A stretch of DNA of 20,000 nt from an uncultured virus (IMG/VR IMGVR_UViG_3300005095_000031). Its lineage: Duplodnaviria; Heunggongvirae; Uroviricota; Caudoviricetes. The DNA lies in IMG/VR virus record IMGVR_UViG_3300005095_000031; one strand, 5' to 3'. Of this stretch, positions 4,689 to 14,235 are shown piece after piece. Position 1 is the first letter of the stretch, and each line of letters begins with the position of its first letter. The translations under genes were made by a program, and so were the position numbers. The notes under the pieces are model-generated. The model ran no database searches. It saw nothing but the letters and a program-made list of their open reading frames with translations, and was not told where the DNA came from.

Positions 4689-7600
4689 TTATATAATATC
4701 CCACTGGTATTTAACGTCTCTATTCTGAGATAGCGGTGCCTTCATGTCCTTCAGTAAGAATGTAATACTTTTCTTGTTTATAATCATACCCCAGTTTCCT
4801 TGACCGAGTGTTGAATCACCGCTAAATTTATCAGTCGCACTAAAAGTAACTACAGGGATAGGACCAAGTCCGCTTGAAATAATATGGCTACCAGTCACCA
4901 TCTCTGTGGCCTCTGATCCTCCATATGTTTGAACTATTGGCCAAAATGGATCTGTACCAGAATGCTTTAGTGCAAATAGAGCACCTGGCGTTCCAATACT
5001 ATGCACAACAACCTTGCCCTGCTTTGCAAGCTCATCAACAGAGTCTCCGTCCCTCGCAATCACAACATCTTGCGCACCGAGGAATTGTCCTGTGCCGCCT
5101 TCTACATACTGAGCTTTGGATACAGCCTTAACGATATCTACATCAAATACGCTAGTGTCGCCATCCCTTGAATAATCAGTAATGCCGACAAAGCTTGAGT
5201 CTGGACCTATATATATCACTTCTGTTGAACATTCAGGAATGTTGTCTTTTGTTTTCTTTTGGGCAAGAATATCCCCATTGGAATCTTGGCATCCGTCTAT
5301 AGCCCCAAGAACAGCACAGATATTAAGTATTCCTGTCTCAAGAACGCCTTCTTCTGTCAACTTAGAAATTCCGGCACGCAAAGATAAAGTTGCTGCGCCA
5401 GGAACCTCTCCATACTCCTGCTTTCCTGTATCAGGATCAATAGAATACAAGTCTGATATATTTCCAAATTCACTTGGAGAGATTCCACTTTTTACAGATG
5501 GGTTTCCAGTACATCCAACCTTTCCTATTTCTCCATCAAAGCTAAGAACAACACCTTTCCTTTCAACAATATCCACTTCTCCTGGAAGGACGGGAGCTGG
5601 TGTAGAGAATCCAACAACTTGTCCTTGAGCAGGCGTATCGTTTTTAGCGCATGGTCCATAGAATGTAAACATAAATTGTGCACTTATTGGCTGTCCGGTT
5701 GATCTGGCATGATATCTAGCTATTCCACTATCATCTGTAGTAACAACTATCTTGCCATCCATATTTGGAGATCCGCTATCTTCATCAAAATACCATTCTC
5801 CACTAACTTTATCAGGAGAATATCTTGCTGAGCTATACTCCTCTAGATACTCTATCAGGTATTCAACGCCAGGTTTTGGAGGAGTAAGTATGACTTTTCC
5901 TTCTTGTGGCTGCATATCCTGATCCAGTGGCGGAGGAGGAACAAGGATTGCAACACATGGAATATCTACCTCAGTTTTCAGTATTCCTATCTGCAATTCT
6001 TTCAATGTGTCGCTAGACCCAGCGAACTCACATCCTCCAGTATCAATGGAGACCTTGAAGTATTCTATATCACTGTTTTCATCATTATTCTGCAAAGTTG
6101 GTATCTTTATTGTAAGCAAAGATTCAGAATTGACATATATTGCTTCTCCAAAAGAAAACTGAATCTCTTCGCCGTTTATTACTACCGTACTATCAATATC
6201 ATTGTCATCTGTAGGGGTTTCTGTAGAGACATCATGATCTATCATAATTGATACTTGCTTGCTATCATCTGTTGTAAAACTAACAGATACATCAGCATCC
6301 TCACCACGCTCCACGATTGGAACGTAGTTTACTGTTGCCATACAATCAGATGTCTTGTCAATTATTATTGATGACAGTGTAGCGCTACCATCTCCGCTAC
6401 CATTAACATCTGAACACTTTTCTGAATAAACAATAAAGTCTACCTGCTCCTGTCCCTCGTCAGATCCGTCATCAATAGTTGGAAGATATATTGTCTTGGA
6501 TGTTTCTTCGGAATTAAGTGTTATTGGAAACTCAACCTCGCTATCATCATCTTTATATCTAAACGAAGAATAGTCTGAACTGTCCGTTGTGACATCAACT
6601 ATTTCTATATTTATATTCTCAGTTTGATCACCCTGAAGATATGGAGCCATTACTGTTATTTCTATATTGCCACCCTCAATAACTACGGGCGTGGCAAATG
6701 CACTAATTGAACATCCACCGTCATCAGTAATCCACATCTTACTAACTATCTCCTGCTGGGAATCTTCTGATATATTTGGGCTTGCTTCAAGAACAGATAC
6801 CACTACATCGAAATCTTCCATCTCCTCGTCACTGTCGTCTTCTTTTGTCGGAACCCTAAAAATTCTATAAGTATCTTCTGGTGTAAATTCATCAAAAAAT
6901 TCTTGAGAAAGGCTAACTTGAGTCCAATCATCACTATCGATGGATTTCATCTCAACTTCGTCTGCTAAATAATCTTCATTATTCTTGGCTGATCCGTCAA
7001 CAAGCTTTATTGAATATTTTATATAACTATCATCACAACTATTTGGAATGTTGGCAGTTATATTTATATAATGGTAGCCACCCTCCATTACAGTACTTGT
7101 AGTGTTAACAAACAATGATGATGGATCCTGTTTCGGGATAAGCGTATTCACCCTATCTCTCATCAAAATAAATTCATCTTCTCCAGTATGCTCAGGAGGA
7201 ATTGTTATATTTTCTATAACCTCAGAATACTGTTCGCTATCTTCTGTTATGTTGTCGTTTTTTACAACCTCTCTAAATGAATTGCTCCTAGTCTCACCAG
7301 CCGGGACAACCAAAGGAAGGTCTCCAACAACTTCTCCGAAGTCGTCATCATCAGTAGTGACATGCTTTCTTGCTATTACATACTCAACATCGTAGTCTAC
7401 TTTTTTTGATGTCTGAATATAGTATTCACCTGTCTCCCCACATTCGCTAGCAACAGAAGGCCCCACCAGCTCAACATATACTGGAATGATTACAAAATCA
7501 CTCCTCCTTGGAACTATCGGGACCAATGGCAATGCATTACAGTCTGGTGCAGGAAGCTCTATCGGCGATATGCCTTCAAGCCGTGGATATACTCTAATAA

Positions 7601-10448
7601 ATTTAACATTTCCGCTTGGGGATGTTATTTCAAGCCCCTCATAAGTCTCCTCTTCCCCCGCTGAATTTAGCAGTGTTCTTGTTGACACTTCAACAGAATA
7701 CCCCTGAGATGTATCATACTCGTATGTTTTTGGCCCATCTCCTCCATGCTCAATCATTATAAGCTTTCCGGCATCAGCATACATAGCAGAATCACTCGGT
7801 GATATAACATAGTATGGTGCCTCATTCATCCACGATTCGTCAGGTATTGACTCATCAAGTATTCTTAAGACAGTCCCATCTTCATCTGGAACAGAAATTC
7901 CATCAATCGATATAGCAAGAATGGAATCAGCAACATCGCTTACATAAACGATTGGAGCACTGAGGCCTTTGAAAATCCCAAGACTATCAGCATTTCCTCC
8001 TTGAGAATACACTTCTGGAGCATCATCTTTTGCTTCTATTTCTACATAATCTAGCATAAATACCCTATCATGGTAATCATGCCCATATCTAAGTTGCTCA
8101 AAGCCTCCAATCTTTGAATTATGCGGAGTAGCATTTTCAAGATCACTTATTTTGATACCATCAAGATATTCATTCATTGCTGAAATAATCGCATCAGAAG
8201 CCGACTTTGAAGCCATAGCATTATCATCGCCATTTATCTGAGCAAACGGACTAAGATTTATAGGCGTAGAATCATGCCATTCTGTACCATAAACACCTGT
8301 TGTACCTATTTTGTTCCCAGCCTCGTCTAGTATCATTCCTCCTATCTTCAGGTACTTTCCTGGAGGCAATTCAACTTCGCCAATAGTCAATGTTTCAGAA
8401 TCTGATGACTCAACAGAACAGAACCCGACAACAGATGTTGATCCACCAACTTCGGAAACATCTATAAAAGAATCGCAAAAATCAATGTTAGTCGGAATGC
8501 CTGTTGCGGACGATACACACATAAGAGTTTGATACACCATGTATGCGACAACTTCATTTGCTGGTATCACATATCCGGACGAATCAAACCCGTACATATT
8601 CTCTGTGTCCATATTCTCTATTATTGCTGCAACATCTATCATGTTTATAGTTCTTGTTGATTTTCCTATATACCTTTCACGACAATCATTATCAGCAGAA
8701 AATACAACCATAGTTTCCTGCCTGCCAGCCTTATTTACGTAGCACTGGCTTTGACGCTGAATGTATCTTGGTGTCGATAAATCTGAAATTGATATTGTTA
8801 CAATATTTGGAATGATTGTAGGGCCAAAAACTGGAAGCATTCTACTGGTGCTTGAATAGACAGAATGAAATAATGTTGGAAATATTGGTGTCTGAATACT
8901 ATACGCATACTGTGGATTTATTACAATCAATGGAAGCTTTATTGAGACATCATTATACACAGGCTCTATTATTCTGGGAATAATAACATTCGGAACTATT
9001 GGCTTCAATACTGGCCCTATAACTTTCATAGCAGTTGGAATTATTACAGGAAAATCTGGAGTTGTTCCAGGCTGAACAACATCTGGTGTCATTAAGCATA
9101 ATTTAGCGACAACCCTTCTTATTGCATCAAAAGTTGATGCCATTCTCTGTCTTGATATATCTATGTCTATTCCAAGCCTTTCAGCATAAGCAGATAGTCT
9201 ACTTATCTCATCCTGATTTTTAAAATACCTAGCAGACATAAACGTTTTTTCATCGTATGACTTATCGTATTCTCCTTTATACTCAAGAAGGATTTTACTT
9301 ATTGCTTCACTATTAAATATACTGTCCATGCTATTGTAGTCAAAGCCAAGGAAAACAGTTCCGTCTATTTTTGCATCTTTCTCAAGATATACAGACTCAC
9401 TTGAATCGCATATCAGCCTAAGATATTCTTTAAACTCATCAATGCTTCCTATATCCTTCTTTATCATCGATGAAAAAAATTCCGATACAATTGATTGCGC
9501 TTCTGCATACGATAATACATTTTCAGGTGATATATATTCCCTATCATCACCTATAATGATATTGTGTGCTTTATTGTCTGTCCTTGAAATATATCTTGAG
9601 TGTATACCCAATAGCTGTTCTTTATTTATTGGTGAAGTAGTATATAAATCGTCAGCACTATTATTGCAAAATATAGGTTCAGCAGACTCAATAGATACCT
9701 TAAATACATTTTCATCCATATATTTAACGCTGACAAGCTCATCGTTGTATATTGGCTGAAAATCATCACCAAAAGATATTTTTGATACGGCAAGAGTATC
9801 GGAGCTAATAGTTGTAATATTGTCCCCGGTTATACTTATTTTGTCTACCTGGTCTGTTTTATGTAAATATCTATTTTTTGCATCGCCATAACTTATTATT
9901 GCCGAGTCGTTATCAACAGACTCTGATACTGTCAGATCAAAAATCTCAGGGTCTTGTATTGCACCATCAGTCTTTCTATACAGTCTGCCTGTAATATCTG
10001 ATTTACTCAATATATTTGAAAATTTTACATCATCTTTTTTTAACAAAAATGAATATGCATTCTCAATAGGAATAAACCTATATTCGACCATGAAAAAACT
10101 TGTTTCTTCAAGATTAACTATATCAATATCGCCAATTATTGAAAAATCTACTGTCTCTTTTTTGAACGATAATGCTTTGACACTAACATATCCCTCTGAA
10201 ATTAGAGTACGTGCATCGTAGTCAAAATAAAACTTATCTTTTATCCCGTCAGAATTTACAGTAATTAGATCTTTGTCGGTGTAAATTCTAAATGATTCTG
10301 CAGTTTTTAATAATTTTTCTGCATATTTTTCTAAAAAAAGAGAGTTTTTATCTGCAACAATAAATGGAAGGTTTACATTTAAGTAATCAAGTGTCTCATT
10401 GGTATTTGGAAGTTCCTGAAGCCTGAAAATCAAATCTTTTCCTTGCAA
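4689..10448 (-). CDS. Large acidic protein with about four tandem Calx-beta-like (Ig-fold, Ca-binding) repeats; putative virion surface/adhesion protein
   Basis: 1919-aa ORF (TTG start uncertain). Repeats of pattern VxEG...D(G/V)(S/T)(A/T)...DY...PTxDDxxxExxExFxV at about 6040-7480 (e.g. PTKEDDSDEEMEDFDVVV, PTIDDGSDEGQEQVDFIV). Confidence 0.8.
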   Translation of the reverse strand: MQGKDLIFRLQELPNTNETLDYLNVNLPFIVADKNSLFLEKYAEKLLKTAESFRIYTDKDLITVNSDGIKDKFYFDYDARTLISEGYVSVKALSFKKETVDFSIIGDIDIVNLEETSFFMVEYRFIPIENAYSFLLKKDDVKFSNILSKSDITGRLYRKTDGAIQDPEIFDLTVSESVDNDSAIISYGDAKNRYLHKTDQVDKISITGDNITTISSDTLAVSKISFGDDFQPIYNDELVSVKYMDENVFKVSIESAEPIFCNNSADDLYTTSPINKEQLLGIHSRYISRTDNKAHNIIIGDDREYISPENVLSYAEAQSIVSEFFSSMIKKDIGSIDEFKEYLRLICDSSESVYLEKDAKIDGTVFLGFDYNSMDSIFNSEAISKILLEYKGEYDKSYDEKTFMSARYFKNQDEISRLSAYAERLGIDIDISRQRMASTFDAIRRVVAKLCLMTPDVVQPGTTPDFPVIIPTAMKVIGPVLKPIVPNVIIPRIIEPVYNDVSIKLPLIVINPQYAYSIQTPIFPTLFHSVYSSTSRMLPVFGPTIIPNIVTISISDLSTPRYIQRQSQCYVNKAGRQETMVVFSADNDCRERYIGKSTRTINMIDVAAIIENMDTENMYGFDSSGYVIPANEVVAYMVYQTLMCVSSATGIPTNIDFCDSFIDVSEVGGSTSVVGFCSVESSDSETLTIGEVELPPGKYLKIGGMILDEAGNKIGTTGVYGTEWHDSTPINLSPFAQINGDDNAMASKSASDAIISAMNEYLDGIKISDLENATPHNSKIGGFEQLRYGHDYHDRVFMLDYVEIEAKDDAPEVYSQGGNADSLGIFKGLSAPIVYVSDVADSILAISIDGISVPDEDGTVLRILDESIPDESWMNEAPYYVISPSDSAMYADAGKLIMIEHGGDGPKTYEYDTSQGYSVEVSTRTLLNSAGEEETYEGLEITSPSGNVKFIRVYPRLEGISPIELPAPDCNALPLVPIVPRRSDFVIIPVYVELVGPSVASECGETGEYYIQTSKKVDYDVEYVIARKHVTTDDDDFGEVVGDLPLVVPAGETRSNSFREVVKNDNITEDSEQYSEVIENITIPPEHTGEDEFILMRDRVNTLIPKQDPSSLFVNTTSTVMEGGYHYINITANIPNSCDDSYIKYSIKLVDGSAKNNEDYLADEVEMKSIDSDDWTQVSLSQEFFDEFTPEDTYRIFRVPTKEDDSDEEMEDFDVVVSVLEASPNISEDSQQEIVSKMWITDDGGCSISAFATPVVIEGGNIEITVMAPYLQGDQTENINIEIVDVTTDSSDYSSFRYKDDDSEVEFPITLNSEETSKTIYLPTIDDGSDEGQEQVDFIVYSEKCSDVNGSGDGSATLSSIIIDKTSDCMATVNYVPIVERGEDADVSVSFTTDDSKQVSIMIDHDVSTETPTDDNDIDSTVVINGEEIQFSFGEAIYVNSESLLTIKIPTLQNNDENSDIEYFKVSIDTGGCEFAGSSDTLKELQIGILKTEVDIPCVAILVPPPPLDQDMQPQEGKVILTPPKPGVEYLIEYLEEYSSARYSPDKVSGEWYFDEDSGSPNMDGKIVVTTDDSGIARYHARSTGQPISAQFMFTFYGPCAKNDTPAQGQVVGFSTPAPVLPGEVDIVERKGVVLSFDGEIGKVGCTGNPSVKSGISPSEFGNISDLYSIDPDTGKQEYGEVPGAATLSLRAGISKLTEEGVLETGILNICAVLGAIDGCQDSNGDILAQKKTKDNIPECSTEVIYIGPDSSFVGITDYSRDGDTSVFDVDIVKAVSKAQYVEGGTGQFLGAQDVVIARDGDSVDELAKQGKVVVHSIGTPGALFALKHSGTDPFWPIVQTYGGSEATEMVTGSHIISSGLGPIPVVTFSATDKFSGDSTLGQGNWGMIINKKSITFLLKDMKAPLSQNRDVKYQWDII

Positions 10449-10809: not shown

Positions 10810-11056
10810 ATTTTGCGCAATTACTGCGGGTGGCTACGCAAAACCACGCAAGCCCAGAAAGGGCCGCTTTATCTGTGTCTGGAGCTTGTCTGTATCTACT
10901 CTGCGACTCACATTTTCTGAAAAATATCAGAGAATGGTCTTGCGACTCGTAGAACTCAACGCTGTCTCTGCACAGAAGGGATTTCCCCAATGTGCACTCA
11001 TGGGTTTTTGGGAAAGGTAGGTATATTGAGGAGGCACACCCCATGAGTGCACATTG
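10810..11056 (-). ncRNA. Unassigned structured RNA candidate downstream of the last tRNA
   Basis: Perfect 17-bp inverted repeat (10988-11004/11040-11056). Nested stems TCTGTG/CACAGA and TCTAC/GTAGA, GTC-GCAA-GAC tetraloop, GCCC/GGGC, GTGG/CCAC. Confidence 0.45.
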
Positions 11057-11107
11057 CGAAAATCAGTTGGTGGGCATGGTAGGACTCGAACCTACGACCA
11101 CCCCGTT

Positions 11108-11822
11108 CAGGTTTGTGAATGTTTCCATCCTCCCTGGACTATATCATCACCCTCATCATTACAAGTTAGGGTGTCGGACGCTAATGATGTATTACAAAGG
11201 ACGCTTCCTTTACCATCTAGTCTCTGCACCTTCCAATCAAGTTCGTGATTGGCTTGGCTCAGGATTGCCATTAGATTCCATATGAGTGGAACCACTTTCT
11301 TGCGGTCTTTTTTGTTACTTTATATTTGCTTGAGATATAGTCAATAGTTTTACCAGCAAGCTCTTCAGCTTTTGGTTTCTTAGACATATGCATATTTTTA
11401 CATACTACTGAACAAAACTTACTATTAGATCCGCCTAGCGGTTTATTGCACTCTATACATCTAAATCTTTTAGGTTCCCCTGAATTCATCCGATTCTCAT
11501 CTACAGATTTCTCTATAGTGACACAAGATAGCCAATTATGAAGCCTTGTATGGTCTGCTTTTGAAAGAAGAATAAGATTGTCGTCCCTGTTGTTTTCTTT
11601 GTTGCCATCTAAATGGTGCACTTCAAAACCGTCAGGAATAGTTCCAACCCTTTCCTCTATCACTGCAATATGTTCATATACATATCCTTCCCAGTTGTCA
11701 CTTTTCATCGCATATTTACTGTCAGGATTGTATACCAAAATATACCCATTAAGTCTTCTACTTTTTGGCATTTGGAATCCTTTTTGCCATAATAGCACAA
11801 GCAAATTAGAATACCAAACCTT
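11108..11822 (-). mobile_element. Group I self-splicing intron (715 nt) carrying an HNH endonuclease gene
   Basis: Exon ends in U and intron ends in G. P AATTCAGGGGAAC (11474-11486), Q GGCAATCCTGAGCCAA (11254-11269), R GGTGCAGAGACTAGATGG (11213-11230), S GATATAGTCC (11136-11145). P3 TCGGATG/CGTCCGA. P2 CTATAGA-GAAA-TCTGTAG. Confidence 0.93.
11271..11771 (-). CDS. Intron-encoded HNH homing endonuclease with C-terminal zinc finger (likely start MPKSRR)
   Basis: VHHLDGNKENNRDDNL...H HNH motif. CIEC...CSVVC. AAGGA SD before the ATG at 11771. Confidence 0.9.
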   Translation of the reverse strand: MPKSRRLNGYILVYNPDSKYAMKSDNWEGYVYEHIAVIEERVGTIPDGFEVHHLDGNKENNRDDNLILLSKADHTRLHNWLSCVTIEKSVDENRMNSGEPKRFRCIECNKPLGGSNSKFCSVVCKNMHMSKKPKAEELAGKTIDYISSKYKVTKKTARKWFHSYGI

Positions 11823-12034
11823 ATGAGCGGGGAGCTCTAACCAACTGAGCTACATGCCCGACTCTGCATTTCGCCGCCCAGAAATAAATCCAAACGGCAT
11901 GGCTGCAGAACACCATAGTAGTTTTTCCATCAAGGTGACTACCAAACACCGACAAAGCATCAATAAATACCTTGTCGGAATCTGGGTTCCAGCAAATATA
12001 TATACCCATTTGAAACACAAAAAGTTCATCAATA

Positions 12035-12111: not shown

Positions 12112-12116
12112 GTGCA

Positions 12117-12197
12117 TGGCGGACATGGCTGGAATCGAACCAGCGAGTCTTTTCCGTAATTGACCAGCAACGCAGAAAAAACTCCCCAAGCATGCCC
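12117..12197 (-). ncRNA. tRNA-like RNA lacking a D-stem (acceptor stem, long irregular stem, T-arm, CCA)
   Basis: GGGCATG/CATGTCC acceptor with G3-U70. GCTGG TTCGATT CCAGC T-arm. GAGTTTTTTC/GAAAAGACTC stem. Ends G-CCA. Confidence 0.6.
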
Positions 12198-12210
12198 TCC
12201 GAGAAGCAAA

Positions 12211-12284
12211 TGGCACGACAGGGGCGGAGTCGAACCGCCTGCTTTCTGCATGCTACCATTGCAACATCGGCCCCTTTTGTCGGC
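12211..12284 (-). ncRNA. tRNA-like RNA with truncated anticodon arm
   Basis: CGACA/TGTCG acceptor-like stem, D-like TGC AATGGTA GCA, mini-hairpin TGC AGAAA GCA, T-arm GGCGG TTCGACT CCGCC, 3' CCA. Confidence 0.5.
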
Positions 12285-12294
12285 CAAAGGCCTT

Positions 12295-12392
12295 TTAGCC
12301 TATCGACGGCTGCGCAGTACCATCGAAGAGGGACTCTGCGGGACTCGAACCCGCATCGCATACTCACAAAGCCAATTCCTATCGAAAACTAA
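12295..12392 (-). ncRNA. Candidate Y-RNA-like (YrlA-type) permuted tRNA mimic
   Basis: Terminal stem TTAGTTT/AGGCTAA, TCGA/TCGA, GGC/GCC, TGCG/CGCA encloses T-arm GCGGG TTCGAGT CCCGC, closed stem AGAG/CTCT and D-loop-like GATGGTA. No CCA. Confidence 0.45.
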
Positions 12393-12396
12393 CCAA

Positions 12397-12550: not shown

Positions 12551-12775
12551 TTTTCCTCAATAGCTCTCTGTAGGCAACTCCTTGAAGTTGCCTATCGGAA
12601 GCTAAAAGTACCTATCAAACAAATATATGGCAATTGCAAATATAGGCATTGATGCAACATATACATAGAATGATATTTCATTAATATCAGTTGTCATAAT
12701 TTTCCATCACATACAACAATAGTGCAACAATTGAAATACCTATAAGAATATCGAACATTTTCAACCTTAGCTATA

Positions 12776-13032: not shown

Positions 13033-13400
13033 AACTGTATGTAGGCCGCATTTTGCACCTCTACAGATACAATAAACTGTCAGAGTACCGCTTCACGGCC
13101 TACTTAGTGCGAAGACCAGTCGGCTCCGGGCCACTAGTTAGTAATGAACAACTATCTAGTGGCCACTACCTGTCGCTCTTCACACTGCATAATTTAGACA
13201 CAAGACAATTATAGTCCCGACCCGGTGCTCATATTAGCACCATCCAGCCGTTACTAACAGGTTGTGTCACTTGTGTTCCCTCCAGTAGCTGTTAACTAAC
13301 TACAACCCCCTAAGGTTGTAGTTAGGGTTACTCTCCCTGGAAGGGCCGGATTTCACCTCTAAAATCTTTAACAAGACCTTAGAGGCGAAATCTTTCAGTT
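13033..13400 (-). ncRNA. Unassigned ~370-nt highly structured RNA candidate within the tRNA array
   Basis: Ends can pair (AACTG/CAGTT). Stems GATTTC.CCTCTAA/TTAGAGG.GAAATC, CTAACTACAACC/GGTTGTAGTTAG, GGTGCT/AGCACC, AGTGTGAAGA/TCTTCGCACT, GGCCACTAG/CTAGTGGCC, GTAGGCCG/CGGCCTAC. Confidence 0.55.
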
Positions 13401-13407
13401 TAATGTT

Positions 13408-13485
13408 TGGAGCCAGAGGCCGGATTCGAACCGACAAAAAAATCAGAATCTAATCTGACGTGTCTCCCACTTTCACCACTCTGGC
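13408..13485 (-). tRNA. Atypical tRNA or pseudo-tRNA with 6-nt anticodon loop (identity undetermined)
   Basis: Perfect GCCAGAG/CTCTGGC acceptor. T-arm GTCGG TTCGAAT CCGGC. TCAGA TTAGAT TCTGA anticodon arm. U7 variable region. T-CCA. Confidence 0.6.
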
Positions 13486-13491
13486 ATTTTA

Positions 13492-13583
13492 TGGTACCTC
13501 TGGCAGGATTCGAACCTGCATCAGCCGCTTATCTGGCGCTGACGGAGTATAAACCCGCTGCTTTACCGTTAAGCTACAGAGGT
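13492..13583 (-). tRNA. tRNA-Ile(UAU) with long variable arm
   Basis: ACCTCTG/CAGAGGT acceptor. GCGGG TT TAT AC TCCGT. Variable arm CAGCGC CAGATAA GCGGCTG. A73, CCA. Confidence 0.88.
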
Positions 13584-13634: not shown

Positions 13635-14235
13635 CTTCCAGCATCATGTTTCCATGACCACCAAAAAAGCTTGGCTTGCTGGCTGGACCATTTCTTCACC
13701 ATTCCAGGTGGACTGCGTATGGCCTCTACGGTTCCTAATTGTCTTTAGTTACCTCGGAGTTGTCGTGTGACCTATACTCACTTACGAGATTCTCCGATAT
13801 AGCAGTCTCCACTTCATGTGTTATTCCGTTCAATTGTATAAAACGAGAAAACTTGCCCCTACAAGATGAACTACAGCATGTGTATCTAGTATTCTTTGAC
13901 AAAAATGTTTGACTACGTTCTCTATGGAATTCTTCTCCACATTGAGGACATTTCAGGATACACATCTTTCTTCCCGTTGAGGAATGTCTTCTTGCGTGCT
14001 CTGATTGACAAGTTAATTCAAGGTTGTCAATACAGTTGTTCTTCTTGTTTCCATCTACATGATGAACAATCTCACTTGCATCGAGAAGTCTTCCTAGGTG
14101 ATTCTCCATTATGATTCTGTGATGAAGAACATACCCGTGCTTTGTTGCGTTTGGGTGTCCTTTAACAACAGCGTAATCGTAGTCACCTTTCTTGACAATC
14201 TTCTCGATGTTCCACATGAAGGCTCCTTTAAGTTA
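13635..14235 (-). mobile_element. Group I self-splicing intron (601 nt) carrying an HNH endonuclease gene
   Basis: Exon ends in U and intron ends in G. P3 GACTGC/GCAGTC (13802-13807/13711-13716), P4 TCGGAG/CTCCGA (13792-13797/13754-13759), P6 GGT/ACC, P7 GGCCAT/ATGGTC, P8 CACC/GGTG, J8/7 AAGAA, P9 CATG-GAAA-CATG. Confidence 0.88.
13735..14217 (-). CDS. Intron-encoded HNH homing endonuclease with C-terminal zinc finger
   Basis: VHHVDGNKKNNCIDNL...H HNH motif. CPQC...CSSSC. AAAGGAG SD at 14223-14229. Confidence 0.9.
   Translation of the reverse strand: MWNIEKIVKKGDYDYAVVKGHPNATKHGYVLHHRIIMENHLGRLLDASEIVHHVDGNKKNNCIDNLELTCQSEHARRHSSTGRKMCILKCPQCGEEFHRERSQTFLSKNTRYTCCSSSCRGKFSRFIQLNGITHEVETAISENLVSEYRSHDNSEVTKDN

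Follow-up and report, generated by a model that had tools for sequence, protein, structure and literature searches.

How can one strand of phage RNA fold into a ribozyme and, with the same nucleotides, encode the middle of a two-domain nuclease? The question is raised by a 20,000-nucleotide (nt) stretch of DNA from an uncultured virus of the Caudoviricetes (IMG/VR IMGVR_UViG_3300005095_000031), which as a whole is called the window here and looks like a phage genome. On its minus strand, a transfer RNA gene with the anticodon CAU, tRNA(CAU), extends from 11859 to 11068 and is interrupted after the CAU by a group I intron of 715 nt. Selfish elements of the textbook kind include group I introns that encode homing endonucleases. 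In the accepted picture, their open reading frame (ORF) sits in a peripheral loop and creeps at most a few codons into the core. For the window, the sequence evidence argues with a probability of roughly 0.8 for a different arrangement: a group I intron of the mobile type that interrupts a phage tRNA(CAU) in its anticodon loop and carries a two-domain HNH endonuclease gene threaded through the ribozyme. Feature coordinates are collected in Table 1.

The ribozyme was recognised by the Rfam model RF00028, which matched 11551-11115 with 75.4 bits (E-value 7.7e-18; gathering score 50) and was covered at model positions 1-253. At the 5' splice site, U11823 pairs with G11522 as the U:G wobble of P1. 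This pair is retained in 12/12 aligned introns of the family described below, and the terminal omega-G (G11108 in the window) is invariant in 13/13. In silico joining of the exons yields a canonical, intact cloverleaf tRNA that ARAGORN calls tRNA-Met(cat). In the unspliced window, neither ARAGORN nor the Rfam tRNA model called the split gene, because it is interrupted. Downstream of the ORF, the ribozyme continues in the order P4', P6/P6a, P7, an extra hairpin, P3', P8, P7', P9.0, P9 and the final G11108, with the prime marking a 3' strand. Bacterial tRNA introns typically belong to subgroup IC3, the signature of which is without P7.1 and P7.2. The hairpin between P7 and P3' (11217-11186) is conserved in the family and bears on such an assignment.

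The helix map places the 5' strands of the core inside the ORF. The P1 loop of 288 nt contains the start codon and the entire HNH domain. The 60 bases that code for the linker are at the same time the internal guide sequence (IGS), P2, the joining segment J2/3, the P3 5' strand, J3/4, the P4 5' strand, J4/5 and the start of P5. The nucleotides common to RNA core and protein number about 66 (11529-11464), with a further 7 at the stop codon, the UAA of which (11273-11271) overlaps the P5a 3' strand just ahead of the P4 3' strand, Q. The overlap at 11529-11464 is internal to the ORF, with the HNH domain on one side and a zinc finger and helix-turn-helix (HTH) domain on the other. A first-pass annotation, made from the letters alone, had put the HNH domain in the P1 loop, had read the codons of the IGS, P2 with its GAAA loop, the P3 5' strand and the P4 5' strand, P, as an inter-domain linker, and had located the zinc-finger C-terminus in the P5 region, ending just before Q. 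The Pfam match, the helix map and the position of the stop codon agree with this layout. The placing of the P1 3' strand was corrected to 11529-11522. An alternative 5' strand for P3 or P4 outside the ORF, which the annotation had named as a counter-argument, was not found in a scan of the whole intron: the single site that pairs fully with P3' (7/7) and P4' (6/6) at canonical spacing lies inside the ORF. As a separate observation, the P4 3' strand hexamer recurs exactly, together with two flanking bases, at 11727-11722 (minus strand) within HNH codons. This copy is probably due to chance; it could compete in folding.

The ORF was listed by the program as 11804-11271 with a TTG start. The first ATG, at 11771, is the likelier start by its sequence context, with AAGGA at 11782-11778, and replaces the TTG. 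A candidate hairpin masking the ribosome binding site (RBS) at this start codon was dropped, with a fold no better than that of shuffled sequences (z -1.14). The protein matched Pfam HNH_3 with an E-value of 1.1e-13 and the PHROG HNH endonuclease with 3.8e-22. The HNH residues are invariant among 24 aligned homologues, and so are C105, C108, C120, C124 and W160. An AlphaFold2 model with this 24-sequence alignment reached a mean predicted local distance difference test (pLDDT) score of 86 and a predicted template modelling (pTM) score of 0.50. Confident domains were obtained at residues 1-83 and 100-166, and residues 85-99 stayed below a pLDDT of 50. The model gives a predicted protein of two confident domains with a disordered linker between them. 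Because these low-scoring residues are flanked by confident domains, the core-coded peptide is likely a flexible tether. Of all parts of a protein, such a tether best tolerates a sequence imposed on it. Searches of the PDB yielded no match at E ≤ 0.01 with the protein sequence and nothing at E ≤ 0.001 with the model in Foldseek. The top homing-endonuclease structural match, I-HmuI (PDB 1u3e), was weak at Foldseek rank 2 (probability 0.97, template modelling score 0.35, E-value 0.11).

If the core strands serve both as codons and as helices, selection on the RNA should be visible within the ORF. The intron alignment (MAFFT) held 13 distinct introns, that is, 23 intron-bearing loci minus ten duplicates. 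Counted over 74 pairs in 16 helices of a structure drawn on the window intron, these related sequences have standard pairs in 87.3% of the pair cells vs 69.1% in column shuffles, and 0/500 shuffles reached as high a value. Sliding the partners by 1-3 columns reduced standard pairs to 33-40%. The covariation score was 0.467, in comparison to 0.151 in shuffles and 0.056-0.114 with slid partners, and 47/74 pairs had changed on both sides across the 13 introns. The helices with ORF-embedded 5' strands were the cleanest of the set: P3 was paired in 96.4% of cells with compensatory changes in 3 pairs, P4 in 100% with compensatory changes in 2 pairs and P5 in 100% with both of its pairs changed on both sides. 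All 7 pairs of P2 changed on both sides across the family. The outer helix of the hairpin at the P7.1 position was 100% paired, with 3/4 pairs changed on both sides. In P1, the +1 position and its guide partner switch together between A:U (4) and C:G (8). Some rows of the MAFFT alignment have P2, P5a and the inner P7.1 helix shifted out of register, and the misaligned 5' half of L015, one of the relatives labelled with L-numbers, was scored as gaps.

The synonymous sites provided the second support. Codons were compared in a back-translated protein alignment of 10 threaded ORFs, leaving out L004, which is near-identical to L001, and the truncated L072; columns were used where ≥7 sequences share a degenerate residue. 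Mean pairwise codon identity was 0.82 in the core (11531-11466; n = 7 columns) vs 0.42 elsewhere (n = 66; one-sided Mann-Whitney p = 2.3e-4). The suppressed synonymous variation predicted by the first-pass annotation for the core codons was thus observed. The serine of the N-S motif in the linker is UCA in 10/10 sequences; at other conserved serines, four or five codons are in use. Beyond the core, residues are kept in both domains while codons drift, with codon identities of about 0.1-0.6 at conserved residues of the C-terminal domain, which argues for selection at the protein level on both domains. The substitution patterns showed both layers of selection, on the RNA in the ORF-embedded strands and on the protein in the flanking domains. 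About 20 codons are under RNA-structure and protein constraint at once, a natural, sequence-rich dual-coding system and one in which to study how a single RNA accommodates both ribosomes and the folding of a ribozyme.

The layout recurs in other phages. A protein search with the intron ORF found 46 homologues, and the relatives' DNA was inspected in 67 loci from viral contigs and 39 from metagenome contigs, with the window itself labelled WIN. The threaded layout is present in 11 distinct loci (WIN, L068, L069, L001, L004, L005, L008, L009, L012, L016 and L021), each with an unbroken ORF for HNH domain, linker, zinc finger and HTH through a group I intron. In these 11 loci and in two ORF-poor relatives, the host gene is tRNA(CAU), split at the same position, and in silico splicing gave a cloverleaf tRNA(CAU) in 13/13 cases (ARAGORN). 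All full-length family members within introns at the loci examined were threaded (11/11), and 0 lay wholly in one loop. Many of the 24 aligned homologues, at 40% identity, carry between their domains the peptide N-[RG]-[MV]-N-S-G-x-[PS]-K, which is the in-frame translation of P3, J3/4, P4 and J4/5. A strict regular expression, with at least one false positive and several obvious variants missed, found the core-coded peptide (N-[RG]-[MV]-N-S-x-K) in 22/45 classifiable close homologues and in 36/135 classifiable representatives of 50%-identity clusters. It was not found in the linker of any free-standing homologue with inspected DNA. On these comparisons, the arrangement is no one-off but an architecture conserved across a family in phage tRNA(CAU) genes: throughout the family, a two-domain enzyme that looks functional is kept wrapped around the catalytic core.

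Pattern searches extended this picture to introns without the nuclease. Among the listed matches to a P7.1-P3' motif pattern, at least 9 of 80 loci are split tRNA(CAU) genes by a strict test, comprising at least 5 threaded ones (all on contigs already in the set), at least 2 ORF-less ones and at least 2 long ones without HNH. The rest of these 80 mostly look like related introns in other genes. Another DNA-pattern scan met the intron in 3/80 loci and otherwise mostly unrelated DNA. A further DNA pattern matched at least 120 IMG/VR stretches, and those tabulated (L122-L201) have a near-identical P3-J3/4-P4-J4/5-P5 motif with a P5 context that is short and apparently free of an ORF. Since generic ORF-less phage introns carry it nearly unchanged, the sequence that codes for the linker is a common core motif of phage introns. 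A search of genome contigs returned 13 loci with partial HNH matches and no full-length relative. By eye, a related group I intron appears to split a phage tRNA in the T-arm, not the anticodon loop, in L364 and L369, about 150-330 nt ahead of the pattern match. Related phage introns with other endonuclease ORFs were seen in L372, L373, L379 and L410. The L372 ORF also reads through P3-P7 (...KNGMNSGN...ILSQ...), and those of L373, L379 and L410 are other endonuclease types that, by eye, lie wholly in the P5 loop (L5).

Free-standing homologues have the same order of HNH, zinc finger and HTH and are sited between tRNA genes. The full-length homologue gp296 of phage phiKZ (31.6% identity) belongs to a tRNA cluster, and homologues with both domains were also present in a Bacillus phage tRNA cluster and in at least 10 distinct metagenomic phage loci. 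Their linkers have 12-27 residues and are without the N-S motif. The term core creep (Edgell, Chalamcharla & Belfort 2011, PMC3073962) stands for the extension of an intron ORF into the core, either past a mutated stop codon or by use of a new start. Its defining overlap at an ORF terminus is absent from the 66-nt internal overlap, and simple terminal core creep cannot explain the latter because both flanking domains are homologous to free-standing proteins. Ordinary core creep is what the 7-nt overlap at the window stop codon looks like, and likewise the 3' tails of several relatives in clade B of the threaded genes, in which the ORF continues through P5', P4', P6 and P7 into the extra hairpin (...ILSQ...GAETTGEV).

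Natural variants record how the partnership of intron and nuclease may come apart. L072 (= P0008) shares 98.2% identity with L069 across 623 nt and is without exactly the 184-nt block of the P5 loop; its ORF of 117 amino acids is HNH-only and continues to a stop codon in P6. The block for zinc finger and HTH (L069 474-657) lies between short repeats that resemble each other and take in the P5 3' strand. At the same tRNA(CAU) site, L015 has an ORF-less intron of 231 nt and a free-standing homologue that ends just upstream of the tRNA, and two more introns without an ORF are those of L392 (234 nt) and L423 (232 nt). Among free-standing relatives, those in L070 and L071 are closest to the window protein (52-55% identity), and each is followed immediately by a tRNA(CAU) gene without an intron. 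Ahead of the L070 homologue lies a degenerate copy of the 5' exon of the split gene (about 1895-1945), without core or 3' half; the homologue overlaps the start of the intact intron-less gene. The L071 protein ends in ...IMWKK, and threaded relatives end in ...I[TV]WQS, the translation of P5'/P4'. L019 is free-standing, yet nested in the threaded clade B (branch support 95/89), and keeps a GAPYEG remnant of the peptide coded by IGS and P2.

The protein tree was calculated from 24 rows (11 threaded, 13 free) with linker columns kept and L108 and L072 left out. Threaded genes fell into two clades, with at least 4 state changes, three of them forced by well-supported branches. In the tree of the intron 3' half, a 99/98 branch divides the threaded introns, and the ORF-less L015 is unresolved on one side. 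Although both trees are unrooted, the variants suggest repeated decay from the threaded to a free-standing or ORF-less state. Pairs of otherwise near-identical genomes with and without the intron were not found among the relatives. The locus bears on how intron-endonuclease partnerships form and dissolve, since threaded, half-deleted, ORF-less and decayed free-standing variants can be compared.

A broader view, which we regard as doubtful in its joint form, takes the threaded layout as an old self-locking state and as a cradle of free-standing nucleases. The linker being the 5' core of the ribozyme, neither partner could be cleanly lost. The passage of the ribosome could act as a timer, so that the RNA is translated once while nascent, then folds, splices and shuts the ORF. 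Many free-standing HNH genes of phage tRNA clusters might descend from threaded introns through decay of the RNA and carry fossil peptides of ribozyme helices, such as GAP...G (IGS/P2) in L019 and 'MWKK' (P5'/P4') in L071. If true, this direction would reverse the usual pathway, in which a free-standing gene invades an intron.

The threaded intron may work as follows. By analogy with group I biology, it would splice itself out and release a working tRNA(CAU). The enzyme would cut tRNA(CAU) genes without the intron in relatives infecting the same cell, and the intron would be copied in by repair. From the geometry, a ribosome on codons 81-101 would have to melt P1-P5, and the folded core would bury the same codons; translation and catalysis would thus be mutually exclusive for one molecule at one time. 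This exclusivity on one RNA we infer only. Translation on the nascent RNA, then folding, then splicing would be the favoured order because the start codon emerges about 660 nt before the omega-G, and the start site with the HNH codons about 700 nt ahead of the final ribozyme strand. Further translation from the excised intron may be possible.

Several points weigh against this reading of the locus. P1 must close over a loop of 288 nt. No RBS-sequestering structure was found near the start codon (fold vs shuffles, z = -1.14), and for this reason no regulation of translation is visible. For the synonymous test, the core contributes only 7 columns, in 10 related sequences. That tRNA(CAU) is the homing target is an assumption from the constant association of the family with this gene. 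At neither threshold did Rfam detect the introns of L009 and L015, which makes its score unreliable as a proxy for activity; a model of the contiguous intron 3' half was built for this reason. Among the window and L001-L099, this model matched 23 loci, exactly the known intron-bearing ones and their duplicates, and had no match beside free-standing homologues.

The same data bear on three other explanations. The intron could be a dead relic, with an inactive ribozyme, a tRNA pseudogene and an ORF that is effectively free-standing and has absorbed intron remains. Decayed relatives do exist, as the degenerate 5' exon of L070 and the core-peptide vestiges of L019 and L071 illustrate. The window, however, has all helices intact, including the U:G pair and the omega-G, compensatory changes run through P3-P9 across the family, the spliced product is a perfect cloverleaf, and ARAGORN saw no second tRNA(CAU) in the tRNA array of the window. 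A relic is improbable on this evidence. Even less probable is that only the HNH domain functions and that the rest, the core-coded stretch and the P5-loop segment included, is read-through without selection. It is the least probable of the explanations weighed here: the C-terminal domain keeps invariant cysteines and a tryptophan while its codons vary freely, it folds confidently in AlphaFold, and it is homologous to that of free-standing relatives. The HNH-only L072 is nevertheless a natural variant, P0033 looks similar, and the ORFs of several clade-B relatives extend through P4'-P7, where the RNA dictates the sequence of the tail.

The threaded protein might also bind its own intron RNA and aid folding or splicing, the layout being selected for that. 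Some intron-encoded endonucleases double as maturases, as stated in the available part of one source (PMC8393795), and direct support from the family is absent. The ORF-less relatives L015, L392 and L423 (231-234 nt) keep the same core without an internal protein. We know of no HNH enzyme that acts as a maturase. Such a role is highly improbable, a shade above mere read-through of the P5-loop segment and below a relic.

In another known case, a reading frame also passes through several core helices, and the stretch concerned forms a leader at the N-terminus that is removed afterwards. In the window intron, this stretch codes for a linker between two domains, and the ORF is not fused to an exon because the host is a tRNA. 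The core-creep examples in Table 1 of PMC3073962 have terminal overlaps of 0-81 nt, none of them an internal linker between domains; the first-pass view of an unusually deep overlap is in line with this list. The nearest described case is the Synechocystis PCC 6803 tRNA-fMet intron with I-Ssp6803I, listed there with an ORF in P1 and a 61-nt overlap of P1/P2. It has in common with the window intron a tRNA host with a CAU anticodon, a P1-inserted ORF and a core overlap. It differs, as listed, in a PD-(D/E)XK enzyme, a cyanobacterial chromosome and an overlap of P1/P2 only; the window has an HNH enzyme in a phage, a reading frame that goes on through P3, P4 and P5, and a second domain, homologous to that of free-standing proteins, in the P5 loop. 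In the T4 td intron, the phage ORF of I-TevI likewise shares nucleotides with essential helices, and the same dual selective pressure was predicted in the part of PMC3073962 that treats it. The I-TevI overlap is 20 nt at the C-terminus, in contrast to an internal one between two domains with free-standing homologues. I-HmuI from an intron of Bacillus phage SPO1 (PDB 1u3e) is likewise a modular HNH enzyme and the weak structural match given above; the SPO1 ORF lies in P8 with a 9-nt overlap (PMC3073962, Table 1).

Other comparisons concern the ribozyme and the niche. The intron of Azoarcus pre-tRNA-Ile(CAU), as described in PMC13168695, is compact, self-splicing and sited in the anticodon loop of a CAU tRNA, and the ORF-less relatives of 231-234 nt are similar to it in size. 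At 205 nt it is ORF-less, unlike the window intron, which has two coding insertions and, between P7 and P3', an additional hairpin. T4 SegB (PMC2330249) occupies the same niche in phage tRNA arrays, but is described there as a GIY-YIG enzyme encoded between tRNA genes without a ribozyme; phiKZ gp296 shares the niche and, by annotation, likewise lies between tRNA genes without a ribozyme. Bacterial tRNA introns were catalogued by Williams 2020 (bioRxiv 10.1101/2020.01.27.920355), with ORF layout not addressed in the available part of that text. A 2014 review, in its passage on phage introns, placed all those then known in protein-coding genes despite the many phage tRNA genes (PMC3984707); the present family adds evidence for group I introns in phage tRNA genes. 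The available text of a 2025 intron and endonuclease database paper does not mention the threaded layout. The open full-text literature, searched apart from subscription journals and bioRxiv supplements, held no endonuclease with domains in two loops and a core-coded linker and no description of this phage tRNA(CAU) intron family. The element is thus of a known kind, a mobile group I intron with a HNH homing endonuclease, in which the gene-through-core architecture appears to be undescribed.

Table 1. Features of the split tRNA(CAU) gene, its intron and the threaded ORF, in window coordinates.
Feature	Position	Strand	Basis
tRNA(CAU) 5' exon, 37 nt, ending CUCAU	11823..11859	-	read from sequence
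P1 5' strand (3 last exon nt and 5 first intron nt)	11818..11825	-	8 base pairs with 11529-11522
Group I intron, 715 nt; U-1 = 11823, omega-G = 11108	11108..11822	-	Rfam; boundaries from anticodon-stem pairing
Shine-Dalgarno-like AAGGA, 6 nt upstream of ATG 11771	11778..11782	-	read from sequence
HNH homing-endonuclease ORF, 166 amino acids and stop codon	11271..11771	-	ORF list; Pfam; PHROG; 46 homologues
Pfam HNH_3 match, residues 32-76, inside P1 loop	11544..11678	-	Pfam
P1 3' strand = IGS, within ORF	11522..11529	-	helix map, covariation
Linker codons, residues 82-101 (SCVTIEKSVDENRMNSGEPK)	11469..11528	-	helix map, low pLDDT, synonymous suppression
P2 hairpin, 7 base pairs, GAAA loop, within ORF	11501..11518 (strands 11518-11512 / 11507-11501)	-	helix map
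P3 5' strand, within ORF	11487..11493	-	partner 11180-11174
P4 5' strand ('P'), within ORF	11478..11483	-	partner 11264-11259
P5 and P5a 5' strands, within ORF	11464..11474	-	partner 11277-11268
Zinc finger (CxxC...CxxxC) and HTH-like domain, residues 102-166, fills P5 loop	11274..11468	-	alignment, AlphaFold
P5 loop, codes zinc finger and helix-rich C-terminal region	11463-11278	-	helix map
P5a and P5 3' strands; hold final ORF codons and stop	11268..11277	-	helix map
P4 3' strand ('Q'), outside ORF	11259..11264	-	helix map, covariation
P6/P6a	11228..11258	-	helix map; 100% paired across family
P7 5' strand, bulged A	11218..11224	-	partner 11141-11136; 100% paired across family
Extra hairpin between P7 and P3', at P7.1 position	11186..11217	-	helix map, covariation
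P3 3' strand	11174..11180	-	helix map, covariation
P8	11148..11173	-	helix map, covariation
P7 3' strand, P9.0, P9 (GAAA loop)	11109..11141	-	helix map, covariation
tRNA(CAU) 3' exon, 40 nt, begins AA at 11107, encoded CCA	11068..11107	-	sequence and ARAGORN on joined exons

The split gene belongs to an array of at least 10 tRNA genes in the window (ARAGORN, Rfam). An inverted repeat at 10980-11064 (25 nt, 92% complementary, spacer 35 nt) begins 4 nt past the tRNA(CAU) 3' end on the minus strand and could be a terminator or a processing hairpin. ARAGORN made two odd calls in the array, a 'tRNA-???' with a two-letter anticodon at 13408-13485 and a tRNA-Ile(tat) of 92 nt at 13492-13583, both on the minus strand. 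The array gaps at 12112-12396, 12551-12775 and 13033-13407 are without annotation or Rfam match. A second, free-standing HNH endonuclease ORF of 160 amino acids (13735-14217, minus strand) lies between the tRNA-Ile(tat) and a tRNA-Asn and shares only 33% identity with the intron ORF, over the HNH core.

PHROG matches in the window include an RNA ligase, HNH endonucleases and a resolvase-like protein; most ORFs are without known function. An ORF of 1919 amino acids (4689-10448, minus strand) is without a PHROG match. The RNA-ligase-like ORF lies at 538-1206 on the minus strand.

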